Made by a program: the position numbers and the translations under genes
In this document: positions 18,474 to 47,505 of the stretch, piece by piece
How the letters are laid out: each line of letters begins with the position of its first letter
Numbering within the stretch: the stretch's first letter is position 1
The notes under the pieces: generated by a model
Database searches by the model: none
Seen by the model: only the letters and a program-made list of their open reading frames with translations
What the model was told of the DNA's origin: nothing
IMG/VR virus record: IMGVR_UViG_3300029850_000008
Reading direction: 5' to 3' (one strand)
DNA length: 64,000 nt
Source: a virus

Positions 18474-18496
18474 TAAGAAAAAAGGAGGTTGAACAA

Positions 18497-18713: not shown

Positions 18714-18742
18714 TTGACAAAATATATTGAGTAATATATAAT
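18714..18742 (+). promoter_or_regulatory. consensus sigma-70-type promoter overlapping an ATTGAGTAAT repeat
   Basis: TTGACA 18714-19, 17-bp spacer, TATAAT 18737-42. Confidence 0.6.
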
Positions 18743-18788
18743 AATATTGTCGAAAGGCAATAGGGCGAAAGCCCAGAAAGGGGGACGC

Positions 18789-28401: not shown

Positions 28402-28812
28402 ATGAACAAACGCAAAGCCAGATATAAAGATTACGATATTACGCCAAAGAGAAAGAAAGAATTAGAGGGATTTTGCGAACAATATCCAGAATGGAAAGAT
28501 GAGTTAATCATTAACCGTATTTCTCCAAAGGGGCAGAAAATTACTGGAATGCCATATTCCAGGACAAATGAAACCAGTGATGAAACCGCCATGTTGGCAA
28601 TCAGAAGAGCTGAAATTCAAGAAAAGATTGATTTGATTGAAAACATTGCCAAGGAAGTAGATCCAGATATTTGGACATACATTATTAAGTCGGTATGCTA
28701 TTTGAAACCATATCCATATTTGAGAAATGTTATGGGAATTCCGTGTTCTCCGGCGGCACTCGCAGACCGGAGAAGATATTTCTTTTGTCTGTTGAATTTA
28801 AGAAAAAAGTGA
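28402..28812 (+). CDS. hypothetical protein (possible late regulator)
   Basis: Track ORF between terL and portal; basic N-terminus; function not recognised. Confidence 0.5.
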   Translation: MNKRKARYKDYDITPKRKKELEGFCEQYPEWKDELIINRISPKGQKITGMPYSRTNETSDETAMLAIRRAEIQEKIDLIENIAKEVDPDIWTYIIKSVCYLKPYPYLRNVMGIPCSPAALADRRRYFFCLLNLRKK

Positions 28813-28894
28813 GTTTTTAAACGGTATTAAACTGTATTATAATACTATTGTGAAAAAATAAAATTGCGTTTGGAGAATATCCAGACGCTTTTTT
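28809..28894 (+). promoter_or_regulatory. late promoter-terminator cassette L1
   Basis: GTGAGTTTTTAAAC 28809, TATAAT 28838 (29 nt start to start), 8-bp hairpin 28866-88 plus T6. Confidence 0.55.
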
Positions 28895-28932
28895 CTTTGC
28901 AAAAACTATGAGAAGGGAGAAATATCTGACAC

Positions 28933-30480
28933 ATGAGAGCAACAATAGAAGACATAAAAATTCGGGAAAAACTTCGTGGCAGAAGGAAGATTTTCACTAG
29001 CTATAAAGTTATCACGAAGGACAATTTGCTTGATGTATTGACGAAAGCAAAATCTACACATATGCTGAATGTTGCAGAAATGAACTTTCTCATAGATTAC
29101 GAAAGAGGGAACCAACCACTTCTGAGAGATAAGATTATAAGACCAGAAATTGATATTGAGGTTAATAGTAATCTTGCGAACTATATCAAGGAATTCAAGA
29201 TAGGTTATGTTTGGAGCAGCCCTGCGATGCTGGTGCAACGAGGAAACCAGGAGATGCATGAGACATCTTCGGATAGTGATGACTCTGGTATTAATGCCTT
29301 GAATGAATCTCTGATCAATGGATCTAATATGGGAAGATTGGAACAGTCTATGGCTGAATTCGTGGAAATCTGCGGAATTGGTCACAGAATGGTTGATGTG
29401 AAATCATCCGACTGGGAAGATGGTCAACTCGCAGAGATCTACACGTTAGATTCCAGATATGCTTTTAATGTGTATTGGAATGGTCCGGGACAGAAAAAGG
29501 TCTTAAGCGTGTCATACTATGAAGATGATGTTGATGATAAAACATATTTTACTTGTATAACGGACGATATGCGATATGAGGTTGTCAACGATGAGATTGT
29601 TGATATGATGCCTAATCCGCTTGGAAAGTGTTCTATTGTGGAATACGAAAGAACCTTTGACCGTACTGGATGCTTTGAAAGGGAAATTCCAAGAATGGAT
29701 TCCTTGAATATCCTGCTTTCTGATTTTACCAATGATGTAGCACAAAGAACGCAGGAAGTTTGGTGGGGAGACAATATTGATTTTAAGCAGGATGAAAAAG
29801 GGAATCGTATTGAACCGCAAAGCGGAGATTGGGTTCTAACTTATAGTGGAGAAGGGAAAACAGCAAAAATCCAGCCGCTTTCAAGTTCATTTGATGGAAG
29901 TAGTACTTTAAATGCTATTTCAAGTGCCAGAAATGAGATTTTGCAGGATTGCAAAGTACCAATTCAGTATGATAGTGCTGGTGGTGGATCTACGGGAACT
30001 GCTATGGATATGGGAAGCGGATGGAGCGCAACAGAACTGGATGCTATGAAAGAGCAGCAGATGATTGAAGCTGGAAAACGTGAAGAACTAGACCTAATAA
30101 TTAGGGCAATTCAAAAAGTTCCAGAAAGAATTCTTCCGCTTGATGATCCGATAAGATCTGTGCATTTAACGGACGTGAACTTCCATTTTACAAGAAGAAA
30201 GAGCCTTGATATGAGCATTAAAGCTAATACGTTTTCAACGTACTTTAACGCTGGAGTTCATCCGAGACATATTTTACAAGCTGTTGACGCTTTCCCGGAT
30301 AATGAGCAGGTATATCTTGATTCCAAAGATATGTTTGATGCTTTACAGAAAAAAATGGTATCAGATACATCAATGGAAAATACAGATGATGCTGCGAATA
30401 CATCAAGTGATCCAATAAATCAGATTGGACAGTCTCCACTTCTTGATGGAATGAACACAGACCGATCAACGGTTGTATAG
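28933..30480 (+). CDS. portal protein
   Basis: 515 aa, position after terL and before Mu F-like head protein. Confidence 0.8.
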   Translation: MRATIEDIKIREKLRGRRKIFTSYKVITKDNLLDVLTKAKSTHMLNVAEMNFLIDYERGNQPLLRDKIIRPEIDIEVNSNLANYIKEFKIGYVWSSPAMLVQRGNQEMHETSSDSDDSGINALNESLINGSNMGRLEQSMAEFVEICGIGHRMVDVKSSDWEDGQLAEIYTLDSRYAFNVYWNGPGQKKVLSVSYYEDDVDDKTYFTCITDDMRYEVVNDEIVDMMPNPLGKCSIVEYERTFDRTGCFEREIPRMDSLNILLSDFTNDVAQRTQEVWWGDNIDFKQDEKGNRIEPQSGDWVLTYSGEGKTAKIQPLSSSFDGSSTLNAISSARNEILQDCKVPIQYDSAGGGSTGTAMDMGSGWSATELDAMKEQQMIEAGKREELDLIIRAIQKVPERILPLDDPIRSVHLTDVNFHFTRRKSLDMSIKANTFSTYFNAGVHPRHILQAVDAFPDNEQVYLDSKDMFDALQKKMVSDTSMENTDDAANTSSDPINQIGQSPLLDGMNTDRSTVV

Positions 30481-30490
30481 GTGATGGCTT

Positions 30491-31126
30491 ATGATTGGTG
30501 CTAGAAGCTTCGATGAAGTGAATGATCTGGTTACAAATAAGCGTGGAATAGATTTTGAAGAATATTTTTCCACGATGGATATTTCAAACGGAGAAAAGGA
30601 AAAGCGTGTTGAATTGGCAAAAAGATTAAATGATCAGTTTCTTGTAATTGTTTCTTTGCTTTTTATGGCTCAGAAATATAGTACAAACGATTATGAATTG
30701 ATTAGAAATAAATTTGTTGATATGTACAAGAATGCGATATTGGGTGTGATTGCTATAGATTCCTATATGAGCGATTATATAGAACAGATATCGCACGATG
30801 TCATAGATTCAACATTGAATAATCCAGATGATCCATACTATGTTTCACCGGACAGAGCAGTGTTCATGGCAGAAAATGAATCAAATACTTGCTGGAATCA
30901 TCAAGAGTTTGAAGATGCCATCGAAAACGGAGCAACAAAAAAACAATGGATTGATATAAGGGATAAAAGAGAAAGAAAAACGCACATAGAAGTTGGCGGA
31001 AAAATAAAACCAATACAAGAACCATTTGCAGTTGGAGATTCACTTTTAGATTATCCGAAAGATACAAAATATGGTGCCGATGCAAAAGAAATTGTAAATT
31101 GCAGATGCTCCATTCGATATTTTTAA
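30491..31126 (+). CDS. minor head protein (Mu F / SPP1 gp7-like)
   Basis: C-terminal VNCRCSIRYF motif typical of Phage_Mu_F; follows portal. Confidence 0.8.
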   Translation: MIGARSFDEVNDLVTNKRGIDFEEYFSTMDISNGEKEKRVELAKRLNDQFLVIVSLLFMAQKYSTNDYELIRNKFVDMYKNAILGVIAIDSYMSDYIEQISHDVIDSTLNNPDDPYYVSPDRAVFMAENESNTCWNHQEFEDAIENGATKKQWIDIRDKRERKTHIEVGGKIKPIQEPFAVGDSLLDYPKDTKYGADAKEIVNCRCSIRYF

Positions 31127-31130
31127 AATT

Positions 31131-31149
31131 ACAGGCATTGCCTGTTTTT
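31131..31149 (+). terminator. intrinsic terminator
   Basis: ACAGGC-ATT-GCCTGT followed by TTTTT. Confidence 0.55.
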
Positions 31150-31227
31150 ATATTGTCCGAGAGAACGGACATTAATATCACACAAAACGCAGAGAAGCGT
31201 ATAAACACAGAAAGGTAGGATTTTGAT

Positions 31228-31887
31228 ATGAAATACATGAATAATCATTTTGGTCAGAGTAGAATTTTTGGAAAGGCTAGATTTATGGCTGAACCAGCCG
31301 GAGATATTGGTGGCGATGATCCTGGATCAAGTGGTGGAGGATCTGGAAACGGAGGATCTGATGATGACAAACCATCGGTTGAGGAACTGATGGCAAGACT
31401 CGCAAAAGCAGAATCTGATAACCAGAAGAATAAACTGGCACTTGATAAAGCACTAAAAGAAAAAGGAGAAATCACTAAACAGTATCGGCAAACAATGACC
31501 GCTCAAGAACAGGCGGAAATTGCGAAGAAAGAAGCAGATGAAGCCAAAGATGCGAGAATCAAAGAGCTGGAAACCAAGATGCTTATTGGTGAGTATACAG
31601 AAAAAGGAATGGATGCTGCTATTGGCATGGACAAAAACACAGCCAAAGAATTCGCCACATCTCTTACATCTGGAGATGTAGAAAAAGCATTTGAGTCCCT
31701 TGGAAATCATATCAAATCTTTAAAGGCTAAATGGGAAGAGGATTTTTATGCAAGCCGACCAGATATTAAGGCTGGAAACGGTGATGGAAAAGATCAGGAA
31801 ACACTGGCAATGAAAAAAGCCAAAGAGTACGCAGAAGCACATAAAAATTCCAAAGCCAATCAGGATGTATTGAAACATTATCTTTAA
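31228..31887 (+). CDS. scaffolding protein
   Basis: Gly-rich N-terminus then A/K/E-rich coiled coil; directly upstream of capsid genes. Confidence 0.65.
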   Translation: MKYMNNHFGQSRIFGKARFMAEPAGDIGGDDPGSSGGGSGNGGSDDDKPSVEELMARLAKAESDNQKNKLALDKALKEKGEITKQYRQTMTAQEQAEIAKKEADEAKDARIKELETKMLIGEYTEKGMDAAIGMDKNTAKEFATSLTSGDVEKAFESLGNHIKSLKAKWEEDFYASRPDIKAGNGDGKDQETLAMKKAKEYAEAHKNSKANQDVLKHYL

Positions 31888-31906
31888 TTTTTAAGGAGGT
31901 TTAACC

Positions 31907-32317
31907 ATGGCAAGAGGTGACATGAAGATGACTAAGATTTCTGTTAATTTAGAAACAGAAATCTTGAATCGCAAAGAATTTGAAGCAACTCCAATGACCA
32001 TTGATTTTGCTGACGTTACTGATACGGCAGACAATGGAGAAAAGATTGTAAAAGCTGGAATGCCGATTGATAAGGACGGAAAACCAGTTAAGACAACACC
32101 GTGGACTGGTGCGGTTGGAATTTTGCTGCACGATGCATACGAGAGCAGACCACAACAGCAGATTTTAAAGAAAGCATATATTAATGTAACCAGAGCAAAG
32201 GCAAATTGTGGATTAACATACGATGCGGCTCTTGTTGCTGCTATGGTAAACGCTGGTTGCAGAATCGTATTTGAGGAAGGAACTTTAGTGGGAACAGTTC
32301 CAGCAGCAGGATCATAA
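31907..32317 (+). CDS. head-associated protein (possible decoration protein)
   Basis: SD AAGGAGG then ATG 31907; between scaffold and major capsid genes. Confidence 0.5.
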   Translation: MARGDMKMTKISVNLETEILNRKEFEATPMTIDFADVTDTADNGEKIVKAGMPIDKDGKPVKTTPWTGAVGILLHDAYESRPQQQILKKAYINVTRAKANCGLTYDAALVAAMVNAGCRIVFEEGTLVGTVPAAGS

Positions 32318-32390
32318 TAAAATTACCGATCGCTTGAAACATAAGAGGTTGCTGACCCCTAACAGTTATGGGGTGGAAAGGAGTTAAGAA

Positions 32391-33458
32391 ATGAGATTTA
32401 CAGATGTATTTTCTGCACAGTCTATCGCATTTAGATGGACCGTTGATGCAAGCAATGCGGTTCCGTTTTTAGGAACCATATGGTTTCCAAACAAAAGAAA
32501 AAATGGTATTACTTTGAAATGGATTAAGGGGCATAAGGGAGTAGGAGTTGCATTAAAGCCGTCTTCTTTTGATGCATTAGCTACTATCAGACCAAGAGCT
32601 GGAGTTACAACTCTGGAACAGGAAATGCCTTTATTTAGAGAGTCTATGACTGTCAAAGAACATGACCTTATGGAGTTAGAGAGAATCAAAGACTCTAATG
32701 ATTCATATCTGGACGATGTGATTGAGCATGTATACAATGATACTGGTGAGCTGATTGATGGTGCGGAAATCTCTGCTGAAAGAATGAGAATGCAGTTACT
32801 GGCTCCGGCAGTTGGAGAGATGCAGATTTCTGTAGGACTGGCCGACAACACTGCATATATCTATGATTATGACAGTGATGATTCCTGGAAAGGAACTCAT
32901 TATGCATCTTTATCCGGAAACGCAACATGGGATAATGCAGCAACAGCAAAACCATTAAAAGATATCAGAACTGGTGTTGAGGCATTGACTGATATCGGAG
33001 TTGTTGCCACATACGCATTAATGAACAGTAAGACATTTGATTATCTTCTGGAAAATGCTCAAATGAAAAATGCATTAATTACTACTTCTGGTGTTAATGT
33101 AGATTTTATGACAAAAGATAAATTAAAAGAGCTGTTCAGAAGCATGACTGGTCTGATCCCGGTACTGTACGATAAGAAATATAAGGATTATGATGGAACA
33201 ACCAAAAAGTTTTATCCAGATGATTATGTTACAATCATTGGAGATGGAGAACTTGGTAACACTTGGTTTGGTGTTACTCCAGAAGAGAGAACTTTAAGGG
33301 AAGATTCCAACGTAGACGTAAGCGTGATGGATAATGGAATTGCAGTTGCTGTGCAGACCGTATATGGTCCGCCTGTTCAGTACAATACAACAGCTTCCAT
33401 GATTGCTCTTCCATCTTTTGAAGGCATGGATGAAATCTATGTTATCAAAGTGAAATAG
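32391..33458 (+). CDS. major capsid protein
   Basis: 355 aa, SD GGAAAGGAG, position after scaffold; capsid E-like pattern. Confidence 0.85.
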   Translation: MRFTDVFSAQSIAFRWTVDASNAVPFLGTIWFPNKRKNGITLKWIKGHKGVGVALKPSSFDALATIRPRAGVTTLEQEMPLFRESMTVKEHDLMELERIKDSNDSYLDDVIEHVYNDTGELIDGAEISAERMRMQLLAPAVGEMQISVGLADNTAYIYDYDSDDSWKGTHYASLSGNATWDNAATAKPLKDIRTGVEALTDIGVVATYALMNSKTFDYLLENAQMKNALITTSGVNVDFMTKDKLKELFRSMTGLIPVLYDKKYKDYDGTTKKFYPDDYVTIIGDGELGNTWFGVTPEERTLREDSNVDVSVMDNGIAVAVQTVYGPPVQYNTTASMIALPSFEGMDEIYVIKVK

Positions 33459-33470
33459 GAGGCCCAGCAA

Positions 33471-33650
33471 ATGAAGTATGACCACATTGTAAATTACAAT
33501 GGAGTCTATTATAAAGCTGGCGAGGATGTACCAGATGAGTTAACGGGAGATGGGAACGAAAGTTCTTGTCTCCCTAATTCCTTTAATGTAGATGATGAAG
33601 TTACGGAGTCAACTACGCCAAAAAGAGGAAGGCCTAAGAAACATCAATAG
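33471..33650 (+). CDS. small protein with AT-hook-like KRGRPKK tail (59 aa)
   Basis: SD AGGAGG then ATG 33471, TAG 33648-50. Confidence 0.4.
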   Translation: MKYDHIVNYNGVYYKAGEDVPDELTGDGNESSCLPNSFNVDDEVTESTTPKRGRPKKHQ

Positions 33651-33661
33651 AGGTGACGAAC

Positions 33662-34006
33662 ATGGAAAATCAACTACTCAAAGAACTTATTCTGTATATC
33701 GGACCAGATTATACTCCAGATCAAGATTCATTTTTGCTTCTTCTAGTCAATGATGCAATAGAAGAGGTTTGCAACGAAATGTTTCCATATGGATTTTCTT
33801 CTGATGAAGAAAAAGAAAAAGGGAAGAATCTTGCAATCAAACGATATGGAAGTGTTATTCGGAAGATTGCACAGTACCATTACGATAAACAAGGAAAAGA
33901 AGGGTTAGTTGGTTTTTCAGAAAGTGGAACTTCTGTTTCTTATGAGAGTGCTGGTACGCCAACCAGTTATTTAAGAAGCGTTATTCCGGTGTCCTTGATT
34001 ATTTAA
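33662..34006 (+). CDS. head-tail connector (gp6-like)
   Basis: ATG 33662 in track ORF 33653..34006; LKELILYIGPDYTPDQDSFLLLLVNDAIEEV resembles gp6-like connectors. Confidence 0.6.
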   Translation: MENQLLKELILYIGPDYTPDQDSFLLLLVNDAIEEVCNEMFPYGFSSDEEKEKGKNLAIKRYGSVIRKIAQYHYDKQGKEGLVGFSESGTSVSYESAGTPTSYLRSVIPVSLII

Positions 34007-34112
34007 AAAGATGGTACGTGGTACGGTGCCCTCCCATCCGTATTGCTGGGATGTTTCGTGAGGTGGTGGGGAGAAACATATCTTTTGACTAACCTGGGAG
34101 AGCGAGGTAAAA

Positions 34113-34427
34113 ATGATGGGATGTGAAAGTGATTGCCCAAATCTTCACCGTTTGCAGAGCCTAGAAGAAGATTACCATGCGTTCAAAGAAAAAAATTCTG
34201 CTGATCACAAAGAATTTTATAATAGAATTGAAATGCTGGAAAAAGAAAGTGCTTTGCATAAGAATGATTTAGAACATATCAAGGAAACGGTGGATGAAGT
34301 AAATACAAATGTGAAAAGTCTCATGGCAATGCCAGGGAAACGATATGAAACTTTGATTGTGTCAGTTATAACCGCTCTTGCAGGTGCATTTGTCGGTTTT
34401 TTGTTAAGCGGTAATATCCCTGTTTAA
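34113..34427 (+). CDS. XhlA-like coiled-coil protein with C-terminal membrane anchor
   Basis: Coiled coil then TLIVSVITALAGAFVGFLLSG transmembrane tail. Confidence 0.5.
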   Translation: MMGCESDCPNLHRLQSLEEDYHAFKEKNSADHKEFYNRIEMLEKESALHKNDLEHIKETVDEVNTNVKSLMAMPGKRYETLIVSVITALAGAFVGFLLSGNIPV

Positions 34428-34459
34428 AACAGGAAATTCCACTTCGGGAGGGACGTGGA

Positions 34460-34702
34460 ATGGAAGACTACAGAGATTTTACAGAAGATGAGAGAAGTTT
34501 TTATTTGCATGAAGCTGGATTTGATTCCAGAGAATCAATGCTTTTCCGATTGCGAGTCTATGATGAAAAAACATTATGGGAGGCAGCGGAGATTATGGGA
34601 TATAGTTCTAGGACTATTGACCGAATAAATAGAAAAATGAAAAAGAAGATTATTCGATGCGCCCCGATGTATTATCGGGGCGTTTCTTTGCAATGGAAAT
34701 AA
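34460..34702 (+). CDS. small sigma-70 region-4-like HTH regulator
   Basis: LWEAAEIMGYSSRTIDRINRKMKKK HTH; SD GGGAGGGA; hairpin CGCCCCGAT..ATCGGGGCG at the 3' end. Confidence 0.5.
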   Translation: MEDYRDFTEDERSFYLHEAGFDSRESMLFRLRVYDEKTLWEAAEIMGYSSRTIDRINRKMKKKIIRCAPMYYRGVSLQWK

Positions 34703-34740
34703 AATAAATGGCGTATAGATGACGTGCTTTTGTCGATATA

Positions 34741-34775
34741 GTGGCGTTTAAACTTCTTTATATAAGGCTTATAAT
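34741..34775 (+). promoter_or_regulatory. late promoter L2 (no terminator)
   Basis: GTGGCGTTTAAAC 34741 and TATAAT 34770, same 29-nt geometry as L1, L3 and L4. Confidence 0.5.
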
Positions 34776-34805
34776 AGTCTTATCAAGATAGGGGAGGGAC
34801 AGAAC

Positions 34806-35300
34806 ATGATGCAACCATATATGTATCCACAATATCAACAGACGATGCCTCCATATGATAGATTGACTCAGTTACAGTCAAATTACCAGGCAGCAATGGC
34901 ACCATACGCACAGATGCAGCAACAAGCACAAGTGCCGATTCAGCCAATTATGCAACCAAACCAATTTCTTTCTGGACAAATGGTTGACAGTATTGAATCA
35001 GTAAAGGCGAAAGATGTGGATATGTCTGGAAACCCTGTTTACTATCCAAAAACAGATGGATCAGAGATTTACAGAAAACAGTTGCAAGCAGATGGAAGAA
35101 GCCGAATTTTTGTTTATCGACTAATAAATCCAGATCAGCAACAGGTTCAAGATGAACCAAAGCAGGTCGATATCGTTGCATTGTTTGACCAACTTAGAAA
35201 TGATGTTCACTCTGAAATTTCTGGACTTAGAGAATTAGTTGGATCGCAAATGGTACCATTAAATAATACCTCCAAAGAAAAAGGAGGTGTATCAAAATGA
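34806..35300 (+). CDS. Q/M/P-rich low-complexity protein
   Basis: MMQPYMYPQYQQTMPPY ... MQQQAQVPIQPIMQPNQ N-terminus; SD GGGGAGGGA. Confidence 0.6.
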   Translation: MMQPYMYPQYQQTMPPYDRLTQLQSNYQAAMAPYAQMQQQAQVPIQPIMQPNQFLSGQMVDSIESVKAKDVDMSGNPVYYPKTDGSEIYRKQLQADGRSRIFVYRLINPDQQQVQDEPKQVDIVALFDQLRNDVHSEISGLRELVGSQMVPLNNTSKEKGGVSK

Positions 35301-35536
35301 TGAATCCAATGCAGATGATTCAGATGATTAGAGGTTCCGGAAATCCTCAACAGATGATGATGAACATGATAAAACAAAATTCCAGTTCTAACCCAATGTT
35401 GAGTAATGCCATGAAAATGATGGAAAATGGAAACACTTCTGGAGTTGAGGACATGGTGAAAAATATATGTAAAGATAAAGGAATTGATCCAAACGATGTT
35501 ATGAAAGCAACTAAAAATATGTTTGGAATGAAATAA
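35297..35536 (+). CDS. M/N/Q-rich small protein
   Basis: MMNPMQMIQMIRGSGNPQQMMMNMIKQN; ATGA overlap with upstream gene. Confidence 0.6.
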   Translation: MMNPMQMIQMIRGSGNPQQMMMNMIKQNSSSNPMLSNAMKMMENGNTSGVEDMVKNICKDKGIDPNDVMKATKNMFGMK

Positions 35537-35613
35537 TCGCCTACAAGATTAAAAGAGCCGCGGACTTTTGATTTTTGTATATATTTATGAAAAATCAATA
35601 GGAGGTAAACACT

Positions 35614-36408: not shown

Positions 36409-36486
36409 GTAACTCGCCCTTAGAGGCTGATTGATTCTAAGAGGTGAGTTCCGGCTCACCTCTTATTTTGATTGAGAGGTAAGAAT

Positions 36487-36900: not shown

Positions 36901-36903
36901 TTT

Positions 36904-37464: not shown

Positions 37465-37470
37465 ATGGAA

Positions 37471-37510
37471 GGAACCTGTGCCGCATATATTTGCGGTATG
37501 GGTTCTTTTT
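37471..37510 (+). terminator. intrinsic terminator closing the low-complexity cassette
   Basis: Two-tier hairpin GGAACC..CCGC-loop-GCGG..GGTTC followed by TTTTT. Confidence 0.6.
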
Positions 37511-37530
37511 ATCAGTGATAGGTGACAAAT

Positions 37531-37914: not shown

Positions 37915-37915
37915 A

Positions 37916-38831: not shown

Positions 38832-38835
38832 ATGT

Positions 38836-39231
38836 ATGATTACAGTTAGAAACCCAACGCTAGATGTGTTTGAAATATGGTCTGAGAAAATAAAGGCAAT
38901 TAAAAACGTTTCTTATTCTATGGAAATGAGCAAAATTCCAAGCTCTTTTCCATATGCAAGGCTTTTCCCTATTGGAAATCCGACTTATCGATCTGATTTG
39001 ACAGGAAACGAATGCGCCATAACACCATCTTATCAGATAGATCTATTTGCAAAAGGGAAATATGCGTTAAAAAATGTTTATGAGTTGGACGAAGTAAGCC
39101 ATAATGCAATGGTCGAAATGGGATTCCATCGAACGTATGGACCGGAGCCAATAGAAAACACAGATAATACGATTAAAAGGCTTGTAAGTCGCTATAGTAG
39201 GACATACTGCGGAGAAGATCTACGAATGTGA
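38836..39231 (+). CDS. tail completion-region protein
   Basis: SD GGAGG then ATG 38836; position only. Confidence 0.45.
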   Translation: MITVRNPTLDVFEIWSEKIKAIKNVSYSMEMSKIPSSFPYARLFPIGNPTYRSDLTGNECAITPSYQIDLFAKGKYALKNVYELDEVSHNAMVEMGFHRTYGPEPIENTDNTIKRLVSRYSRTYCGEDLRM

Positions 39232-39305
39232 GTTTTTAAAACAATAGTAACTGGTTTATAATAGTATAAGAGAAATGAGACATCTGGATTCCAGGTGTCT
39301 TTTTT
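39228..39305 (+). promoter_or_regulatory. late promoter-terminator cassette L3
   Basis: GTGAGTTTTTAAAAC 39228, TATAAT 39257, 10-bp hairpin 39278-39300 plus T5. Confidence 0.6.
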
Positions 39306-39329
39306 AATTTGTGGAAAGGAGAAAATGAT

Positions 39330-39590
39330 ATGGATTTTGGAATTGCGAGTGTGGCTGCGATTGTTGCAATCTGTTATTTTATCGGTCTTGGTGTGAAAGC
39401 ATCTGGCATTAATGATAAATGGATTACAGTGATTGTTGCAGTAACTGGTGGACTTCTTGGAATTGCCGGAATGTATGTCATGCCAGATTACCCGGCAAAT
39501 GATGTGATCAATGCCGTTGCGATTGGCATGGTATCTGGTGCATCCTCCACATGGATTGACCAAACCAAGAAACAGTTATCAAAAAAGTAA
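39330..39590 (+). CDS. holin-like membrane protein
   Basis: SD AAGGAG then ATG 39330; 86 aa, hydrophobic segments with a charged C-terminus. Confidence 0.5.
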   Translation: MDFGIASVAAIVAICYFIGLGVKASGINDKWITVIVAVTGGLLGIAGMYVMPDYPANDVINAVAIGMVSGASSTWIDQTKKQLSKK

Positions 39591-39667
39591 CAGAACAATA
39601 AAAAATTTTCCGGTCATTGAAATGATGATCGCTGACCACAAATAATTACGTGGTAGAAAGGAGAAAT

Positions 39668-40153: not shown

Positions 40154-40192
40154 TGATTTAATAGAACGGTTATTAATGGGAGGGGATAACTG

Positions 40193-40732
40193 ATGTATAA
40201 AGTTTTAAAAATTGGAGACAAAGATTATAAACTGGAGTATACAATCGAGGCATCTTTGTATGACGAGGGCATTGATACAACATTAAAGTTTATTAGTGCT
40301 GCCGGAATGCCAAAAGAAGAGGATCTGGAAAAGTATACTCCAGAACAACAGATCGAGATCCGAAAACAAGTGGTTGATAATATCATGAAATCCATGACAA
40401 ATCTTCCGAAAACAGCTATGGACTTATTTTACATGGGGCTTTTGGAACATCATGGATCTGGAAAATATGCAGACCATACCATTAAAAGTAAGGACGATGT
40501 AAAAGATCTTATCAGAGATTATTTTGAAGACCATACAGATGATGGGACTGGAACTTTTTATGATATTTTATCCATGTGTTTGGATCAAATGGCAGAAGAC
40601 GGTTTTTTCAAACGGACGGGGCTGGAGAAGATGATGAGCAACGCACAGAAAAAGGACGAATCGAGCGAACCAGTTCCGGTAAACAGAGAACAGAGACGGG
40701 CGAAGCAGAAGCAGAAACCCTCAAAGAACTAG
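40193..40732 (+). CDS. tail assembly chaperone (G-like)
   Basis: Position before tape measure; acidic; overlapping -1 frame ORF downstream. Confidence 0.7.
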   Translation: MYKVLKIGDKDYKLEYTIEASLYDEGIDTTLKFISAAGMPKEEDLEKYTPEQQIEIRKQVVDNIMKSMTNLPKTAMDLFYMGLLEHHGSGKYADHTIKSKDDVKDLIRDYFEDHTDDGTGTFYDILSMCLDQMAEDGFFKRTGLEKMMSNAQKKDESSEPVPVNREQRRAKQKQKPSKN

Positions 40733-41076
40733 CATTAAAGAAATTACTTCCAAAAGCGATTGATTGTGGAATACGGACAGAAGATTTTTACCATATGACA
40801 TTAAAATCGGTTCGTATGGAGATCGAAGGATTTTGGAACAGAAGAAAAAATGAATGGGAACTTGCTGAATATCAAGCGTGGGTTTCTGGTGCTTATAACT
40901 TAAGAGCCATTGCTTCGGCATTTTCCAGAAATGCAAAATATCCAGGTAATCCGATGCAGGAAGAATCCATTAATGTGGAAGAACTGACGGATGATGAACT
41001 TGCTGGAATCCAGGAACAATATCTTTTGAGCCTGGATCGCATGGCGAAAAGAGCCACTGGGCAGGCAGATGATTAA
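40193..41076 (+). CDS. tail assembly chaperone -1 frameshift product (GT-like)
   Basis: Track ORF 40576..41076 is in the -1 frame and has no SD of its own; slip at 40648-54 joins the frames. Confidence 0.55.
40648..40654 (+). promoter_or_regulatory. candidate -1 slippery heptamer G_AAA_AAG
   Basis: Zero-frame codons CAG AAA AAG; the -1 frame continues GGA CGA ... to 41076. Confidence 0.5.
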
Positions 41077-41098
41077 ACGTCTGCTTGCCCTATTTTTT
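41059..41098 (+). terminator. intrinsic terminator between chaperone and tape-measure genes
   Basis: 11-bp stem GGGCAGGCAGA/TCTGCTTGCCC followed by TATTTTTT. Confidence 0.65.
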
Positions 41099-41159
41099 AT
41101 TATATACGGTTATTTAAGCACGAAAATAACTGTTGACCTTTAAAAGATTGGAGGAAGAC

Positions 41160-44100
41160 ATGGCTGATAATACAATAGATTCTTTGGCGATAAAAATATC
41201 GAGTAATATGGGCAGTGCCGATAAATCTATAGGGCGATTGGCGGATTCCTTATCTAGGGTAGCAGAGTCGCTTGGCAAAATAAACCCATCTACGTTTTCC
41301 AACTTAGCTAGTGGAATCGGTGATTTGAAAGTTGCAATGGATGGAATGAATGCTACGGTAAAAACTGTTGATTATACTAGGGTTGCAAAAGGATTAAACT
41401 CTATCGCCACAGTAAATGTACAGGGAGTAACTGATGCGTCAAGGGCAATAAGGGATCTGGTTACAAATCTTAATCAGGTTGGTACAATTGCGTTTGATTC
41501 ACAGGGCATTTTGAATATTGCGAACTCTGTTGCGCAATTAGGAAGAGGCACAGTAACGCAAGCAGCAGACAATATTCCAAAATTGACTACGGAATTAAAA
41601 AATCTTATCGCTGGGCTTAATGGACTGAATTTTAATGGATTTGATCTTACTGGTCTCACGAATTTAACCACGGCAATATCGAAAATGGGAGGTGCGGCAG
41701 CCGGAAGAGCGGCAAGCGGAAATATAGAGAATCTTGGAAAAGCATTGAAAAATATGCTGACTACGCTTTCCACGGCACCAACGGTAAGCAATAACATCAT
41801 TCAGATGACAAATGCGCTTGCTGGATTGGCGGCGGCAGGTGGAAAGGCGGGTGTTGCGGCAAACAGCCTGGTTTCTGGATTCCGTTCACTCCCTGCGACT
41901 ACTTCAAAAGCAAAGAATAGTTTTGGCGGACTTGCATCAGCAATAAGCAAGTTCTATGCAACATATTGGATGATCATTCGTTCTATTGGTCTATTCAAAA
42001 AGGCTATTGATATTTCCAGTGACTTAACCGAGGTTCAAAACGTTGTCGATGTCACATTTGGTGACTTGGCAAACAAAGTTGATGAACTGGCAAGCCACTC
42101 CATCCAGGACTACGGAATGTCTGAACTGACTGTAAAGCAGGTATCCAGCCGTTTTCAAGCAATGGGAACTTCAATGGGATTTGCGCAGGATAAAATGGCT
42201 GATATGTCCATTGAATTGACCAAATTAACAGCAGACATGGCGTCATTTTACAATGAAAGCCAGGGAGATGTGGCTAAGAGATTACAGTCGATCTACACTG
42301 GTGAAACCGAACCACTCCGCCGTTACGGAATTGACCTTACAAATGCCACTTTGCAGGAATGGGCAAACAAAAAAGGAATTGATGCAAAAGTAAATTCCAT
42401 GACGCAGGCACAGAAGACCATGCTTCGGTATGCGTATGTCATGGAAAATACATCAGCAGCACAAGGGGATTTCGCCCGTACAAGCGGAAGTTGGGCGAAT
42501 CAACTTAGAATGCTTGTTCAGCAGTTTGAACAATTAGGATCAGTAGTTGGCGGTACTTTGGTTAATGCATTTAAGCCTTTAATCACTGTATTGAACAACG
42601 TAATGCAAAAGGTTATCTCCTTTGCAAAAACGGTAGCAAATGCACTTGGTGCTATTTTTGGATGGACAATTCAAATTGATTCTGGTGGCATGGCTAACGA
42701 TTTCGAAGCGGCAGGAACAGCGGCAGAAGACATGGCTGATGGAACCGGAGATGCTGCTAAAAATGCAAAGAAGCTGAGTAACTATATTGCTGCATGGCAT
42801 GAAGTCAATAATATGACTACAGATGATAGCAAGAAAAAAGGCTCTGGTTCTGGTGGTGGTGCTGGAGACTTAGGGGATTTATCTGGATACCAGGAAAATC
42901 TTGTAAAGACCGATGGTTTGCTTCAAAAGTATGAGAGCGAGATTGATACTCTCAGAAAACTTGGAAAATATATTGGTGATACTCTTTCTGATGCCATGGA
43001 AAGTATAAACTGGGATGCGGTTTATGAAAAAGCCAGAAATTTCGGAACGGGATTAGCAGATTTTCTTAATGGATTATTTGTTGACACCAGTCTGTTTTCG
43101 AGTCTTGGAAAAACCATCGCCGGATCTTTAAATACGGCATTACATGCACTGAATTCATTTGGAACCACATTTGACTGGACTGGATTTGGAAAATCTGTTG
43201 CTGATGGTATTAATAAATTCTTTTCCACGTTTGATTTTGGATTATTGGCTAATACACTAAACGCATGGGTTCATGGAATTTTCGATATGGTTAAATCAGC
43301 AGTGCTAAATATAGATTGGTCTAATATTTTATCTGGAATCGCTGATTTTTTTAATGAAATTGACATTGATACCTTGTTGGTAATAATAGGCGGAATTGCA
43401 CTTAAAAAAGGAACTGTAAAAAAACTTTTTGCATCTTCAATAATTAAATCAATAGGAACTGGAATTTCATTAAAAAATCTCCCTGTGAGTATTAGTTCGA
43501 TTTCATGGGGAACAATTTATCTTGGTGGAGCTGCTTTCGATGTAATTGGAACAGAAATCATAAACGGAGTAAACAGTTTTATAACAACATACTTTGGAGA
43601 AAGTGTTGCTAACGCAATGGGAGAAGCACTTCTTATATCCGTTACTACTGGAGCTGGATTGGTATTAGGTGGACCGATAGGATCGGCTATTGGTGCAGCC
43701 ATAGGCATTGCACTCGATACTTTTGTGGTAAAAGGCGAGTGGATAACGAAGTTCTGGAAAAAAATAGGAGATGACTTATTTAATTTTGATGTGACAAAAA
43801 GTCTTCTGGACTACTCTAAACAATGCTTTTCTACTGCATTTAGCACGGATTCGTTTGCTGAATTTGGTATTAATATAGTAGAAGGAATTGCTAATGGATT
43901 GGCATCTGCTCTTACTTTTTTAGTAGAACCAATATTCGATATGTTTGATATAGTCGTAAAAGGAATTTGTGATGTGTTTGGTATACATTCTCCATCAAAG
44001 GAAATGGAACCATATGGAGAATACATCTTACTCGGAATAGTACAAGGATTTTCTAATTCTATAGGAACATGGGTTCAAAAAATAGTCGATTGGAAAAATC

Positions 44101-44873
44101 AAACCACAGAAAAATTCAAATCAATTATTAATGATACTGTTATACCAAATGTCATGACATGGTTCTCTGCTATGCCAGGGAAAATATATGATTCCATTAT
44201 TAAAGTTAAAGATAAACTTGATGTATGGAAAACCAATATCAATTCATTCTTCGCAACAAATATTCCTCAGATTGTAAAGCGTGTGGTTGATTTGTTTGGT
44301 GATCTTCCAAAACAGATGGTCACTGTTGGAGAAAATATCATCAAGGGACTTTGGAATGGTATTAATAATATGGTCGGATGGATTGGAGACAAAATCAAGG
44401 GTTTCACATCTGGAATCGTAAACGGATTCAAGGAAGGATTTGACGAACATTCTCCATCAAAGATTGCTTTTCAGATTGGCGATTACTGGACGATTGGACT
44501 TGGTAATGGTATGTCTGATAAGTTTTCAGATATTTACAAGCAAGTCAACAATTTCACAGATAATATTGCAAAAACTCAGATTTCAATTCCAAAATTGGAT
44601 TTATCTGTGCCGGATACTGATTTCACACCTAAAATGAATTTTGATTCTGGAAAACTTTCCACCACAATGCATGATGAAATTGATGTAAAGATGGCTGAAT
44701 ATTCCTATCAGATGCGTCAGCTTCAACAGTCCATTGAAACCCAGAATCAGATTCTGGAAGAAATGAATGCAAAAGGCTTGGTATTTGATGATAATGCTAT
44801 GGTCAAAAAATATCAAACGGCAGCAACAAAGTTCCGTAGACAAACCGGAAGACAGTTAGGAATTGCATATTAA
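41160..44873 (+). CDS. tape measure protein
   Basis: 1237 aa from ATG 41160 (SD GGAGGA); Ala/Gly-rich helical repeats; canonical position. Confidence 0.9.
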   Translation: MADNTIDSLAIKISSNMGSADKSIGRLADSLSRVAESLGKINPSTFSNLASGIGDLKVAMDGMNATVKTVDYTRVAKGLNSIATVNVQGVTDASRAIRDLVTNLNQVGTIAFDSQGILNIANSVAQLGRGTVTQAADNIPKLTTELKNLIAGLNGLNFNGFDLTGLTNLTTAISKMGGAAAGRAASGNIENLGKALKNMLTTLSTAPTVSNNIIQMTNALAGLAAAGGKAGVAANSLVSGFRSLPATTSKAKNSFGGLASAISKFYATYWMIIRSIGLFKKAIDISSDLTEVQNVVDVTFGDLANKVDELASHSIQDYGMSELTVKQVSSRFQAMGTSMGFAQDKMADMSIELTKLTADMASFYNESQGDVAKRLQSIYTGETEPLRRYGIDLTNATLQEWANKKGIDAKVNSMTQAQKTMLRYAYVMENTSAAQGDFARTSGSWANQLRMLVQQFEQLGSVVGGTLVNAFKPLITVLNNVMQKVISFAKTVANALGAIFGWTIQIDSGGMANDFEAAGTAAEDMADGTGDAAKNAKKLSNYIAAWHEVNNMTTDDSKKKGSGSGGGAGDLGDLSGYQENLVKTDGLLQKYESEIDTLRKLGKYIGDTLSDAMESINWDAVYEKARNFGTGLADFLNGLFVDTSLFSSLGKTIAGSLNTALHALNSFGTTFDWTGFGKSVADGINKFFSTFDFGLLANTLNAWVHGIFDMVKSAVLNIDWSNILSGIADFFNEIDIDTLLVIIGGIALKKGTVKKLFASSIIKSIGTGISLKNLPVSISSISWGTIYLGGAAFDVIGTEIINGVNSFITTYFGESVANAMGEALLISVTTGAGLVLGGPIGSAIGAAIGIALDTFVVKGEWITKFWKKIGDDLFNFDVTKSLLDYSKQCFSTAFSTDSFAEFGINIVEGIANGLASALTFLVEPIFDMFDIVVKGICDVFGIHSPSKEMEPYGEYILLGIVQGFSNSIGTWVQKIVDWKNQTTEKFKSIINDTVIPNVMTWFSAMPGKIYDSIIKVKDKLDVWKTNINSFFATNIPQIVKRVVDLFGDLPKQMVTVGENIIKGLWNGINNMVGWIGDKIKGFTSGIVNGFKEGFDEHSPSKIAFQIGDYWTIGLGNGMSDKFSDIYKQVNNFTDNIAKTQISIPKLDLSVPDTDFTPKMNFDSGKLSTTMHDEIDVKMAEYSYQMRQLQQSIETQNQILEEMNAKGLVFDDNAMVKKYQTAATKFRRQTGRQLGIAY

Positions 44874-44890
44874 AAGTTTTGCAGAAAGAA

Positions 44891-44940
44891 AGGCAACAAA
44901 ACTGTTCTTAATAAGAGAGCGGCAATGTTGCCTTTTTCTT
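44891..44940 (+). terminator. terminator after the tape-measure gene
   Basis: 8-bp stem AGGCAACA/TGTTGCCT (27-nt loop) followed by a T-rich run. Confidence 0.5.
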
Positions 44941-44965
44941 TTTTTGGTGAAAACAGATAGTGCCA

Positions 44966-45011
44966 TTGACTTTTGTCATAACAAAACGTATAATTATGTC
45001 ATGACAAAACG
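44966..45011 (+). promoter_or_regulatory. consensus promoter with twin 15-bp direct repeats
   Basis: TTGACT 44966-71, 17-bp spacer, TATAAT 44989-94; TGTCATAACAAAACG 44974 and TGTCATGACAAAACG 44997. Confidence 0.6.
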
Positions 45012-45026
45012 AAAGGAATTAATACA

Positions 45027-45191
45027 ATGGCTAGACCAACAAAAAACCCAAAAGGGAACAGGGAGAGTTTTCGCCTGTCAGACCAAGATGTTGAAAAACT
45101 GAAATTATGTGTAGAAAAAACAGGAATGAGCAAGACCGATGTGATTCGAATGGGAATTGACAAGATATATACGGAATTAAAAGAAAAGTGA
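45027..45191 (+). CDS. ribbon-helix-helix protein (54 aa)
   Basis: ATG 45027, TGA 45189-91; ESFRLSDQDVEKLKLCVEKTGMSKTDVIRMGI RHH pattern. Confidence 0.6.
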   Translation: MARPTKNPKGNRESFRLSDQDVEKLKLCVEKTGMSKTDVIRMGIDKIYTELKEK

Positions 45192-45329
45192 TGGGAGTTT
45201 ATTCCCACCACTAAATCTTTGTTGAAAGTGTTTCCACCGTTCAACTAGTTTATAATTCTTTCTCGACAATTGAATTATAACACGGTGGTTACTCTTTCGC
45301 AAGTGAAAAGGCAGAAAGAGGGTAGAAAT

Positions 45330-46328
45330 GTGAGCAAGTTATTAATAGATGAATCACCATTATTAGTATTGCCGTCATTGGCGGCAACTATTGGACTCAA
45401 TGAATCAATCGTGCTGCAACAAGTTCATTATTGGCTCCAAGTAAAAAAATCAGCAGGAAAAGATTATATTGATGGGCATTATTGGGTGTACAACAGTTTT
45501 TCTGACTGGAACAAGCAATTTCCGTTTTGGTCTATCAATACGATAAAAAGAACTTTTTACAGCCTGGAAGAAAAAGGTTTATTGATCTCCGGAAACTACA
45601 ATCAGAGAAATTTTGATAAAACTAAGTGGTATTCCATCGACTATTCTGTGTTGACTCATTTTGATGCACTCGTCGACCCATTTTGGGTCGATCGAGAATC
45701 CCATTTTGGGTCGACCAATACCATAGACTACATTACAGATAATAACAACAATAATGTCACAAACCCTCTGGAGGAAAAGAATCCAGAGGATAGTGATAAG
45801 GATAATGCTTTTTCCAAAAAGAAGGAAAAAGATATTCATGCTTCTTCTTGTAATTATATAAACAATGTAAATATATCTAATAGCATTCAAAAACAGAGAG
45901 AACTGATTAAATCAAGGAAGAAGGAACAGTTATCTTTAACTCTTCCAGAAACGATTCTTTTATCGGAACAATCAATCCATGCTGCTATGGCTCAATCAGT
46001 GATTGGAGAAGATGCATGCTTTGAATCGTGGGTAAAAGAAGTGGTTAGGTACTTCTTGGAATCATATGGCAGAAACCGTGGCGAGATGCACCCGTCTATT
46101 ACGGTATCTCAAGCAGTGAAAATTATTGATAAGTATGTTCTGGTTCCAAAATCATTGGAAAATGAGGATATTGGTGTTAGAGAATACAAGTTAATGATAG
46201 ATCAATACTTTAAGACTAAATTTGGGCTGAGGAGCGGGCAAAACGTGGATTATCGTATCATGCATTTCATGAGCGATAAAATTAGGGAACGTATGTACTG
46301 GAAAATTAATAACTCTGATATGCAGTAG
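45330..46328 (+). CDS. replication-initiator-like winged-helix protein
   Basis: GTG 45330 after SD AAAGAGGG; LPSLAATIGLNESIVLQQVHYWL ... INTIKRTFYSLEEKGLL resembles RepA_N / replisome-organizer N-domains. Confidence 0.5.
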   Translation: MSKLLIDESPLLVLPSLAATIGLNESIVLQQVHYWLQVKKSAGKDYIDGHYWVYNSFSDWNKQFPFWSINTIKRTFYSLEEKGLLISGNYNQRNFDKTKWYSIDYSVLTHFDALVDPFWVDRESHFGSTNTIDYITDNNNNNVTNPLEEKNPEDSDKDNAFSKKKEKDIHASSCNYINNVNISNSIQKQRELIKSRKKEQLSLTLPETILLSEQSIHAAMAQSVIGEDACFESWVKEVVRYFLESYGRNRGEMHPSITVSQAVKIIDKYVLVPKSLENEDIGVREYKLMIDQYFKTKFGLRSGQNVDYRIMHFMSDKIRERMYWKINNSDMQ

Positions 46329-46348
46329 CTTTTTGGTGGAGGGATGAC

Positions 46349-46650
46349 ATGAATCATAGGAAAGAAGAAAAAAAGAGTGGATTATTGATTATGCAATAAA
46401 TAATCAAGATGTTTTTATTGATATAACATCTGAAGAGTTTGTAGAAGCATATGTTGAAAAATTCGATCCACCAGGCGTATTGTGGCAATGGTATGGTGCA
46501 CCGACTGTTCCGGAGCTGAAAAAGCTATTAGCGGATCTTTACAAAGAGGGGAAAATGTCAAGGTATAGACACTACTGCGATATATGGAAAGATGGATTTC
46601 CTAGATGGTTTTATATTTATAAATATACTGGAACAGATCGCAGATTTTAG
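46349..46650 (+). CDS. ORF needing a -1 shift at A_AAA_AAG (programmed slip, or A7 indel/pseudogene)
   Basis: SD GGTGGAGGG then ATG 46349 gives a 16-codon ORF; heptamer 46369-75; the -1 frame has 91 further codons and no start codon. Confidence 0.35.
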
Positions 46651-47164
46651 ATTCATAATTCCGCTAAATAGCAATTTGAGTAACTTCCAATCTGAAAATG
46701 CCAAATTGGTAATCGGTAAAGTTGACAATGGTCCATATATGTACTTAATAAACAAAATTACTAACAGTTTGTTAATGCTACGGATGAATGAAGAAGATAA
46801 GTCCATAGCTGTGAATGCACAGACCAATGGTGCATGGGGATCCGAAAAACTGCTTGCCACAAAGGATTATTTAGGCGTGACCCAATACAATGGCGTAGAC
46901 TACATTTCTCTGAGCGGGAAATTATCCAATATTGGTGAATGGGTAAAAAATAATGGTACGCCAGGTAAATGTACATTTGTTCGTGTAGAACCATCAGATT
47001 CTGACGGATATTTTGGTACATCCGGATTTAGCATCTTATGGATGCGCACTTCAGTTAACTATGGCTGGTGTATCTTAATATCTGATGATCCAAGAATGGT
47101 AGTTTTTGGTCGGAATTCCACTGGATGGCATTGGTATGCGCCGTCGTTGACCGAAGTATCATAG
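46592..47164 (+). CDS. hypothetical protein (start uncertain)
   Basis: Track ORF; overlaps previous ORF by 59 nt; weak SD. Confidence 0.4.
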   Translation: MDFLDGFIFINILEQIADFRFIIPLNSNLSNFQSENAKLVIGKVDNGPYMYLINKITNSLLMLRMNEEDKSIAVNAQTNGAWGSEKLLATKDYLGVTQYNGVDYISLSGKLSNIGEWVKNNGTPGKCTFVRVEPSDSDGYFGTSGFSILWMRTSVNYGWCILISDDPRMVVFGRNSTGWHWYAPSLTEVS

Positions 47165-47266
47165 TTTTACATCACTAAAAGTACCACCATTGCTATTTAT
47201 TTGAGTAATTTTAAAATGTATATTTAATCAAAATTATCACATAAATTACTGTGATGATAAATGGTA

Positions 47267-47327
47267 AATAAGAGCTATTCGGCTGTACAATCCTTACGGA
47301 TTATGGGTACTGTGAATAGCTCTTATT
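47267..47327. repeat. long perfect inverted repeat / hairpin
   Basis: 14-bp arms AATAAGAGCTATTC / GAATAGCTCTTATT with inner AATCC/GGATT and GTAC/GTAC pairs. Confidence 0.6.
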
Positions 47328-47398
47328 AAGATATCTTATGTGTATTTTACAATAATATGCTTAAGATTGCAAGTTAATTACCATTTAGCAATTTCAAA

Positions 47399-47479
47399 GT
47401 GAGTTTTTAAAACTGCCCAATATGGGTTAAAATAATATAAGAGATTTTAGGAGAACGTCATTTTGTGGCGTTCTTTTTT
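47399..47479 (+). promoter_or_regulatory. late promoter-terminator cassette L4
   Basis: GTGAGTTTTTAAAAC 47399, TAAAAT 47428, 8-bp hairpin 47453-73 plus T6. Confidence 0.6.
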
Positions 47480-47505
47480 CTTTGTGAGAAAGGAGGTCGA
47501 TTTTC

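Follow-up and report, generated by a model that had tools for sequence, protein, structure and literature searches.

Late promoters with leader terminators in a gut phage: a probable ArpU/RinA-type regulator and a candidate case of promoter-coupled antitermination

The 64,000-nucleotide (nt) IMG/VR virus record IMGVR_UViG_3300029850_000008 (hereafter the window, that is, the whole 64-kb stretch that was analyzed) carries the late module of a siphovirus-like phage of ~38% G+C that is common in human gut metagenomes. Three predicted late promoters in this module are each followed by an intrinsic terminator, with the ribosome-binding site of a late gene directly behind it, and this layout raises the question of how those genes come to be expressed. 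We propose that the three promoter-terminator cassettes are late promoters without a −35 element that depend on reg136, a protein of 136 amino acids (aa) encoded beside the first of them (28402..28812), and that polymerase engaged there by this putative late transcriptional regulator (Ltr) overrides the leader terminators, as polymerase modified by lambda Q would. The promoter and regulator assignments, taken together, are well supported, and the complete proposal, read-through included, is one that we hold to be evenly balanced between right and wrong. The cassettes, the site at 34741, the internal terminators, the early promoter, and both regulator genes described below lie on the + strand.

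A preliminary description of the window had listed four GTGAG-type boxes, each starting 29 nt before the start of a −10 hexamer. All four sites were located with that spacing (28809 to 28838, 34741 to 34770, 39228 to 39257, and 47399 to 47428), but they do not form a single class. When the whole window was searched and mismatch counts were compared with those in shuffled sequence, GTGAGTTTTTAAA was found in exactly three zero-mismatch copies (28809, 39228, and 47399), all intergenic, and in none with one mismatch. Counts at up to three mismatches equaled the shuffle expectation, and therefore only the exact copies are meaningful. The site at 34741 is separate: it shares with the other three only the spacing and a GTTTAAAC palindrome, and its TGGCG is the last of four TGNCG repeats. 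Cassette 1 (promoter at 28809..28851) consists of the box GTGAGTTTTTAAAC at 28809-28822, the −10 TATAAT at 28838-28843, and a second hexamer, TATTGT, at 28846-28851. In cassette 3 (39228..39270) the box GTGAGTTTTTAAAAC is followed by TATAAT at 39257-39262 and TATAAG at 39265-39270; cassette 4 (47399..47441) has the same box, TAAAAT at 47428-47433, and TATAAG at 47436-47441. The TGA stop codons of the preceding genes, reg136 and the tail-terminator gene, fall within boxes 1 and 3, respectively.

The nature of these promoters can be read from a comparison within the window. An early promoter at 18714..18751 has the structure TTGACA-17 nt-TATAAT-AA-TATTGT, with a canonical −35 and the same core as the late cassettes, and it is also present in the distant relatives L015 and L019. 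The late cassettes are this early-promoter core with a box in place of the −35. We regard it as well supported that they are factor-type promoters in which the box, at a fixed distance, has probably replaced the −35. Because the early promoter combines an identical core with a true −35, host sigma-A polymerase is likely to use the −10. The second hexamer (TATTGT or TATAAG) lies 2 nt past the −10 and starts 8 nt after it, at approximately −4 to +2. Similarity of sequence behind the −10 had been listed as a feature of the late promoters; it consists of this hexamer, which is also present at the early promoter. Its position and that same occurrence led us to reject it as a Q-type pause element. 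The early leader also contains a hairpin, GGGCGAAAGCCC, with a GAAA loop and without a U-run (18714-18790). The early promoter points away from a minus-strand gene block at 17277-18629. Activator boxes that replace a −35 at a fixed distance from a sigma-70-type −10 are found at T4 MotA/AsiA middle promoters and with class II activators such as Mu Mor/C. Those proteins are unrelated to the ones described here, no AsiA-like cofactor was identified, and those systems have no leader terminator.

The terminators reported behind three of the boxes were confirmed. In cassette 1, GCGTTTGG-AGAATAT-CCAGACGC followed by TTTTTTCTTT forms a terminator at 28866..28898 (hairpin at 28866-28888 and T-run to 28898; −13.2 kcal/mol), and a ribosome-binding site and the portal start codon at 28933 come downstream of it. 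The cassette 3 terminator at 39277..39309, GAGACATCTGG-ATT-CCAGGTGTCTT followed by TTTTAATTT (hairpin at 39277-39301 plus T-run; −14.6 kcal/mol), lies immediately 5′ of the ribosome-binding site of a Hol44-family holin-like gene (39309-39590). Cassette 4 has GAGAACGTCA-TTTT-GTGGCGTTCTT followed by TTTTCTTT at 47449..47483 (hairpin at 47449-47477 plus T-run; approximately −12.4 kcal/mol), immediately 5′ of the ribosome-binding site of a DUF6711 distal-tail gene (47506-47919). A possible role of conserved AGAAAT loops as a protein-binding motif was considered and rejected, since GAAA tetraloops with a closing A-U pair account for them better. In read-through RNA, the leader U-run can pair with the purine-rich ribosome-binding site (28889-28920 and 47473-47500); such pairing could link termination and read-through to translation, or be no more than trivial complementarity between purines and a U-run.

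The earlier suggestion that late antitermination might be RNA-based was also considered. Candidate elements in the leader would be of the put/EAR/canT or boxB kind, or an antiterminator fold that competes with the hairpin. RNA elements that cause processive antitermination are known from mobile elements of Gram-positive bacteria, Tn916 among them (PMC11658703), and several of the hairpins have a GAAA-type loop. The spacer between core promoter and hairpin is, however, A-rich and only ~6 to 25 nt long, folding of the leaders gave the terminator as the only structure with no competing one, the hairpin sequences are unrelated between cassettes, and Rfam returned no match. An RNA-based mechanism is therefore unlikely, the leader being too short and lacking both an alternative fold and an Rfam match, and we assign it a very small probability.

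For comparison, we assembled 76 IMG/VR loci encoding reg136 relatives (35 to 100% identity). More than 60 of these retain the succession of TerL gene, regulator gene, cassette, and portal gene. Terminators were counted over 51 non-identical loci in the 140 nt after the regulator gene: a terminator-like element was present in 44, at −12 kcal/mol or stronger in 43, and a hairpin plus T-run of that strength followed only 49 of 373 control open reading frame (ORF) ends (13%) in the same loci. The anatomy of the spacer is nearly constant, running from box to −10, second hexamer (TATTGT or TATCAT, 2 nt beyond the −10 across the family), short A-rich stretch, GC-rich hairpin with T-run, and ribosome-binding site. 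In the family alignment a TGAG, TGCGG, or TGAC box stands at a constant offset, ~28 nt before a TATAAT-like hexamer, which in most clades is a TGn extended −10. The box is present in L004 and L010 although it is not the stop codon there, which argues that it is a nucleic acid signal and not a coding constraint. Within one genome the hairpin sequences of different cassettes are unrelated, and compensatory changes are seen. On sequence grounds, then, the leader hairpins are genuine, selected terminators.

The distance from the hairpin end to the ribosome-binding site has a median of 11 nt and is at most 19 nt in 36 of 42 loci. No promoter fits into this interval, and portal mRNA must therefore cross the terminator. 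In the window, too, the ribosome-binding site directly behind each terminator means, by geometry, that the late genes are expressed only on polymerase read-through. As predicted from this layout, terminator read-through is obligatory for late gene expression.

Which factor would act at the box? The preliminary description had supposed that a phage-encoded factor probably recognizes it and had named two ORFs, 28402-28812 (reg136) and 34460-34702, as candidate regulators; both probably belong to the RinA superfamily. The reg136 gene is co-oriented with that for TerL and starts 5 nt behind it. It stands directly before the late morphogenesis operon, with box 1 overlapping its stop codon, the portal and head genes next, and the terminator, as in the 43 of 51 relatives, between it and the first late gene. 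The protein matches phrog_248 ("transcriptional activator"; E = 1.2e-5), which RinA of phage 80alpha also matches (6e-11). TIGR01637 (phage_arpU) was matched by three of 33 reg136 family members (best E = 5.6e-6), and two members weakly touch DUF1492. By hhalign, the family is collinear with RinA over 86 columns (E = 0.036), with the shared motifs KYG[IL]..L..C..YP.[WY][KH]..L and P.S.TS.[ET]...[AS]IRR[AG].I...IE.I; its comparison with the single L128 regulator sequence (see below) was not significant. The structural model is all-helical (mean predicted local distance difference test score, pLDDT, 81.5) and ends in three C-terminal helices (91-135) with an invariant RR. Neither a sequence-profile search nor Foldseek (no match at E < 3) found anything for it in the PDB, and searches of BFVD gave weak matches only, to "Sigma70 r4," "ECF sigma," "DUF1492," and "transcriptional activator" (template modeling scores of 0.4 to 0.55). 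The family comprises at least 1144 protein clusters, all named "hypothetical." Its probable assignment as a divergent branch of the ArpU/RinA-type Ltr superfamily is well supported. The statement that the window has no recognizable antiterminator gene thus needs revision to the extent that the cognate regulator is recognizable as an ArpU/RinA-type Ltr; no NusG/LoaP-like or Q-like gene was found among the window genes searched.

The best evidence at hand for reg136 being the factor that binds the box is that the box co-varies with the regulator. A search of relatives for the box, as had been suggested, found the exact GTGAG version only in the window's own species, where all three cassettes are kept, and cassettes with GTGAC or GTCAGCT in two other lineages. 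In lineage 3300045988_121765, whose reg136 is 60% identical, GTGACTTTTTA (GTGAC) occurs at cassette 1 and at the holin cassette, both times 29 nt before the −10 and each time with its own unrelated hairpin; the GTGACTTTTTA pattern scan was unspecific, and this two-cassette lineage was found among the matches listed. Members of the L118/L128 lineage encode a different protein, of 150 aa, at the position between TerL and portal. It has a weak Sigma70_r4_2 match and a phrog_36 match and is named DUF1492 in nr; DUF1492 is the LtrB family (PMC3753634). This lineage has three cassettes, placed after the regulator, before the holin gene, and before the DUF6711 gene. In each, ATGTCW repeats in 10-nt phase end in GTCAGCTWTAAA (GTCAGCT) exactly 29 nt before TGn-TATAAT or TGn-TAAAAT, and each is then followed by a different terminator. 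In three lineages, then, the box changes with the regulator encoded beside cassette 1, and the geometry and the terminators stay constant. These are the properties of factor-dependent promoters, and reg136 would bind the GTGAG box and activate sigma-A polymerase. Extra box copies were sought within 10 kb on either side in 19 other relatives, most of which have a single cassette there; a scan with the L010-type box pattern gave one copy per contig and is uninformative on the tail region.

The separate site at 34741 looks like the promoter of a second, minimal regulator-promoter pair inside the late operon. The gene just before it (34460..34702) encodes an 80-aa protein, sig4_80, which appears to consist of only the sigma-region-4-like helix-turn-helix of RinA-type regulators and is the proposed activator of this site. 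It matches Pfam Sigma70_r4 (E = 4e-5, below the curated cutoff), positions 116-163 of 165 in TIGR02937, and positions 140-185 of 220 in phrog_36 (1.6e-6), a family that RinA matches at 8e-39. The promoter (site 2, 34709..34775) has TGGCG, TGACG, TGTCG, and TGGCG at 34709, 34720, 34731, and 34742, in 11-nt phase, with the last repeat 28 nt before TATAAT at 34770-34775. No leader terminator lies downstream. Instead, a hairpin with a T-rich tail (34659..34683; −18.7 kcal/mol), conserved in L118, lies upstream within the 3′ end of the sig4_80 gene, giving the conventional order of terminator and then promoter. The arrangement of repeats, 28-nt spacing, and no leader terminator recurs in L001, L118, L010, and L003; the TGNCG repeats are conserved in L001 and L118/L119, and L010/L004 have CTGTCC repeats instead. 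Across these cases, and as a correlation only, a regulator reduced to the helix-turn-helix goes with a promoter without a leader terminator, and full-length regulators go with leader terminators. We also considered whether reg136 and sig4_80 form a split sigma factor of the SigO-RsoA type. This was rejected, as the two have separate target sites, each right after its own gene, and as sig4_80 (76% identity) and its TGGCG repeats persist unchanged in the L118/L128 lineage, in which reg136 is replaced by the DUF1492-type protein.

The likeness of reg136 to the Ltr superfamily (RinA, ArpU, LtrA, LtrB/DUF1492, and LtrC) extends beyond remote sequence links. These are small helical proteins of ~130 to 150 aa with a C-terminal sigma-4-like helix-turn-helix, which reg136 may share, and their genes end at or within their own target sites. 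In the rinA-terS spacer of 80alpha, we found the rinA stop codon, two TGGCAGT repeats in 11-nt phase, TATTAT-GA-TAGTGT starting 28 nt after the last repeat, a strong terminator, and terS; the two hexamers are identical to those of locus L015. Repeats, spacing, and hexamers are as in 80alpha in a phi69-type phage, a Latilactobacillus (L. sakei) phage, and Paenibacillus phage Diane. The phi13 repeats and TATAAT have a 10-bp hairpin and UUUUUAUUUUU behind them, and the first late gene comes directly afterward. The 28- to 29-nt distance from repeats or box to a sigma-A-type −10 is common to all of these, and 80alpha, the phi69-type phage, and phi13 have the layout of the cassettes. Published work on all four Ltr families, RinA among them, has demonstrated that a functional terminator separates the ltr gene from terS and that no phage protein other than the Ltr is required (PMC3152322, PMC3753634). 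There are also differences. The reg136 family has no Pfam or NCBIfam assignment; its gene lies between those for TerL and portal, with TerL upstream, whereas the ltr gene precedes terS; its target in the window is a single 13- to 15-nt box rather than three or four repeats; there are three dispersed cassettes per genome rather than one late promoter; and the Ltr literature puts the terminator before the promoter and proposes no control by read-through.

That last difference turns on where transcription starts. In 80alpha and phi11, the published 5′ end maps 23 to 24 nt ahead of terS, which is past the terminator and a long way from the RinA site. It suggests an alternative for the cassettes, in which box and hexamers are a binding platform and not a start: late mRNA would continue a TerL-reg136 or other upstream transcript that reg136 lets past the terminator, or it would begin beyond the terminator, as mapped for 80alpha/phi11. 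The co-orientation of reg136 with TerL, 5 nt apart, would suit such a continuous transcript. We consider this improbable, as box, −10, and geometry are all complete in cassettes 3 and 4, which have no regulator gene upstream, the core matches that of a bona fide −35/−10 early promoter, and the ~11 nt from hairpin to ribosome-binding site leave no room for a downstream promoter. For phi13 (LtrC), moreover, mapping placed the transcription start immediately behind the Ltr repeats, and its TATA box proved essential (PMC13123087). The published 80alpha 5′ end itself has no recognizable −10, and the TATTAT-GA-TAGTGT core sits upstream of the terminator (L155, 1419-1608), so that the published start may not be the RinA-dependent promoter.

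If start sites lie at the cassettes, the sequence of events that we favor would be as follows. Host sigma-A polymerase would use the −10, and reg136 would bind the box that stands in for the −35, its TGAG starting 28 nt before the −10 (~−41 to −29). Each transcript would meet an intrinsic terminator 20 to 50 nt on, with the ribosome-binding site right behind. Polymerase that initiated with reg136 at the box would have become terminator-resistant, a promoter-coupled antitermination, and polymerase arriving from upstream, or started without reg136, would be stopped at the leader terminator. The cassette would then serve as an insulator and an all-or-none late switch, and the three cassettes would re-arm polymerase along the 24-kb late region. 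Site 2 would be a plain activator-type promoter served by sig4_80.

The late region does hold further strong terminators. Of the internal terminators previously listed, three were found to be strong: 37471..37514 (−24.1 kcal/mol), 41059..41100 just 5′ of the tape-measure gene at 41133-44873 (−23.3 kcal/mol), and 44890..44942 after that gene, ahead of an inserted DnaD-like module and cassette 4 (−21.0 kcal/mol). The first lies only 8 nt before the next late gene (37522), and no promoter fits between. The one at 31131 is weak, with a 6-bp stem, and a further terminator, between the genes for a 264-aa and a 142-aa protein of the late operon (36438..36473; −17.5 kcal/mol), had been missed. Two other hairpins lie upstream of cassette 1. 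One, with a T-rich tail (28743-28777; −16.8 kcal/mol), is contained in the 3′-terminal part of the reg136 gene, ~30 nt ahead of box 1, and could attenuate transcription from upstream before it reaches the cassette. The other, with a T-run (26159-26197; −18.8 kcal/mol), directly precedes the TerL start codon, and its loop region contains AAGGAGG, the ribosome-binding site of TerL; it might terminate transcription or control translation of the packaging genes.

The main competitor to active antitermination is a simpler one, namely that reg136 only activates initiation, as a class-II-type activator or sigma-4 substitute, at promoters whose hairpins are leaky attenuators and insulators. The hairpins would stop read-through from upstream, damp basal expression in the lysogen, and protect the mRNA 5′ end, and a fixed fraction of polymerase would leak through. 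Ltr proteins have been described only as activators (PMC3152322, PMC3753634, PMC13123087), and the presence of several promoters within the operon (cassettes 1, 3, and 4 plus site 2) suggests that transcription decays with distance. The leader of the early promoter likewise has a hairpin near its 5′ end, although without a U-run, and neither a Q-like protein nor a pause element is found. Against this reading, promoter always comes before terminator, whichever of three positions, three lineages, or four regulator families is considered, yet there is room upstream of the promoter (e.g., 235 nt before box 4), and site 2 has its terminator there. The terminators are strong, with GNRA-type loops and six or seven U residues, the terminator of the staphylococcal system cut Pcad read-through to background, and losing most late transcripts would be costly. 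We therefore judge a leaky attenuator unlikely, though far from negligible.

Active antitermination at the cassettes, as inferred here, would also account for strong internal terminators ahead of essential genes, and site 2 demonstrates that this phage can place a terminator before a promoter. The layout agrees with that of lambdoid Q (mechanism summarized in PMC6606751): the regulator gene directly precedes the late promoter, the DNA site is embedded in the promoter, a terminator separates the promoter from the late genes, and more terminators lie within the late operon. It differs from lambda in that the terminator is at ~+20 to +50 rather than +194, the promoter has no −35 and is probably not constitutive, and there are several loading sites per genome.

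Several observations weigh against antitermination by reg136. The protein resembles none of Q-lambda, Q21, and Q82 in sequence or fold (Pfam Q families, PDB sequences, and Foldseek at E < 3), and it has itself no Pfam or NCBIfam match, its links to ArpU/RinA being remote and below curated thresholds. No clear sigma-dependent pause element is present in the cassettes, and the second hexamer is absent from the DUF1492-type cassettes. The extra promoters within the operon argue against fully processive antitermination, and the published 80alpha/phi11 5′ end fits the order terminator and then promoter there.

The layout common to the relatives and to RinA phages suggests that regulators of this late class must also aid terminator read-through. 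Stated most broadly, leader terminators would be integral to Ltr-dependent promoters across Firmicutes phages, and Ltr proteins, besides being activators, would be promoter-loaded antiterminators that use a sigma-4-like scaffold and correspond in function to lambda Q in Gram-positive phages. The generalization would cover the reg136 family, the DUF1492-type regulators, RinA of 80alpha/phi11, and LtrC of phi13, and it would explain why RinA requires sequences more than 155 bp upstream of the mapped terS 5′ end, a requirement that the RinA authors left unexplained. We found no paper linking RinA to antitermination, and we offer the generalization tentatively, as a possibility somewhat short of even.

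The late genes run from TerL (26198-28396), reg136 (28402-28812), portal, and head genes with the major capsid protein through sig4_80 (34460-34702) and neck and tail genes to the holin-like gene (39309-39590), the major tail protein, the tape-measure gene (41133-44873), the inserted DnaD-like module, the DUF6711 distal-tail gene (47506-47919), and further tail genes. No annotated phage related to the region was recovered from INPHARED in a near-DNA search. The holin-like gene, with its own cassette, stands between the tail-terminator and major-tail genes, a placement kept in three lineages, and an endolysin-like gene (54276-55058) is far from it. The insertion between the tape-measure gene and cassette 4 (44873-47399; G+C content 0.35) carries a DnaD-like replication initiator (45270-46328) and an ORF of 190 aa (46592-47164), together with small ORFs in both orientations. 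L118/L119, whose gene order is otherwise equal, lack this insertion. That cassette 4 is a by-product of this insertion was rejected, as L118/L119 have the cassette without it.

Other features of the window were recorded in passing. TerL is 732 aa long, with an apparent ~160-aa insertion in the Walker A motif (...PARVGK | LISND...IPTHN | TQIITLG) that recalls a mini-intein or Hint domain; an equivalent insertion is present in the TerL of L128, and the TerL proteins of close relatives are 913 to 925 aa long, with a faint LAGLIDADG match. Two phage tRNA genes, Gln-TTG (24979-25051) and Met-CAT (25313-25385), lie just before the packaging genes and are preceded by an extended −10 promoter-like site (TTGCAA ... 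TGATATAAT, ~24819-24850). The window encodes both a large serine recombinase (9999-11753) and a tyrosine integrase (52485-53480). Two 56-nt repeats ending in GATACCCCCCCT follow just past the serine recombinase gene (11884 and 12008), and three tandem 27-nt repeats (ACTRTGGAGCATCATCCGCAACCGGAA) at 63920-64000 run off the window end.

What is new here is that promoter and terminator are coupled, that this coupling recurs at several cassettes, and that it extends to the RinA and LtrC systems; the regulators themselves are divergent members of a known superfamily, to which a large unannotated gut-phage branch is added. Ltr proteins control packaging, lysis, and pathogenicity-island transfer in many Gram-positive phages, and their promoters gain a grammar, a TGNNG box core starting 28 nt before a sigma-A −10 with no −35, with which the mechanism of Ltr action becomes directly testable. 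If the proposal is false, the cassettes would still be a compact, portable unit of insulator and inducible promoter from gut Lachnospiraceae phages. If it is true, promoter-coupled antitermination of the Q type would not be limited to lambdoid phages.

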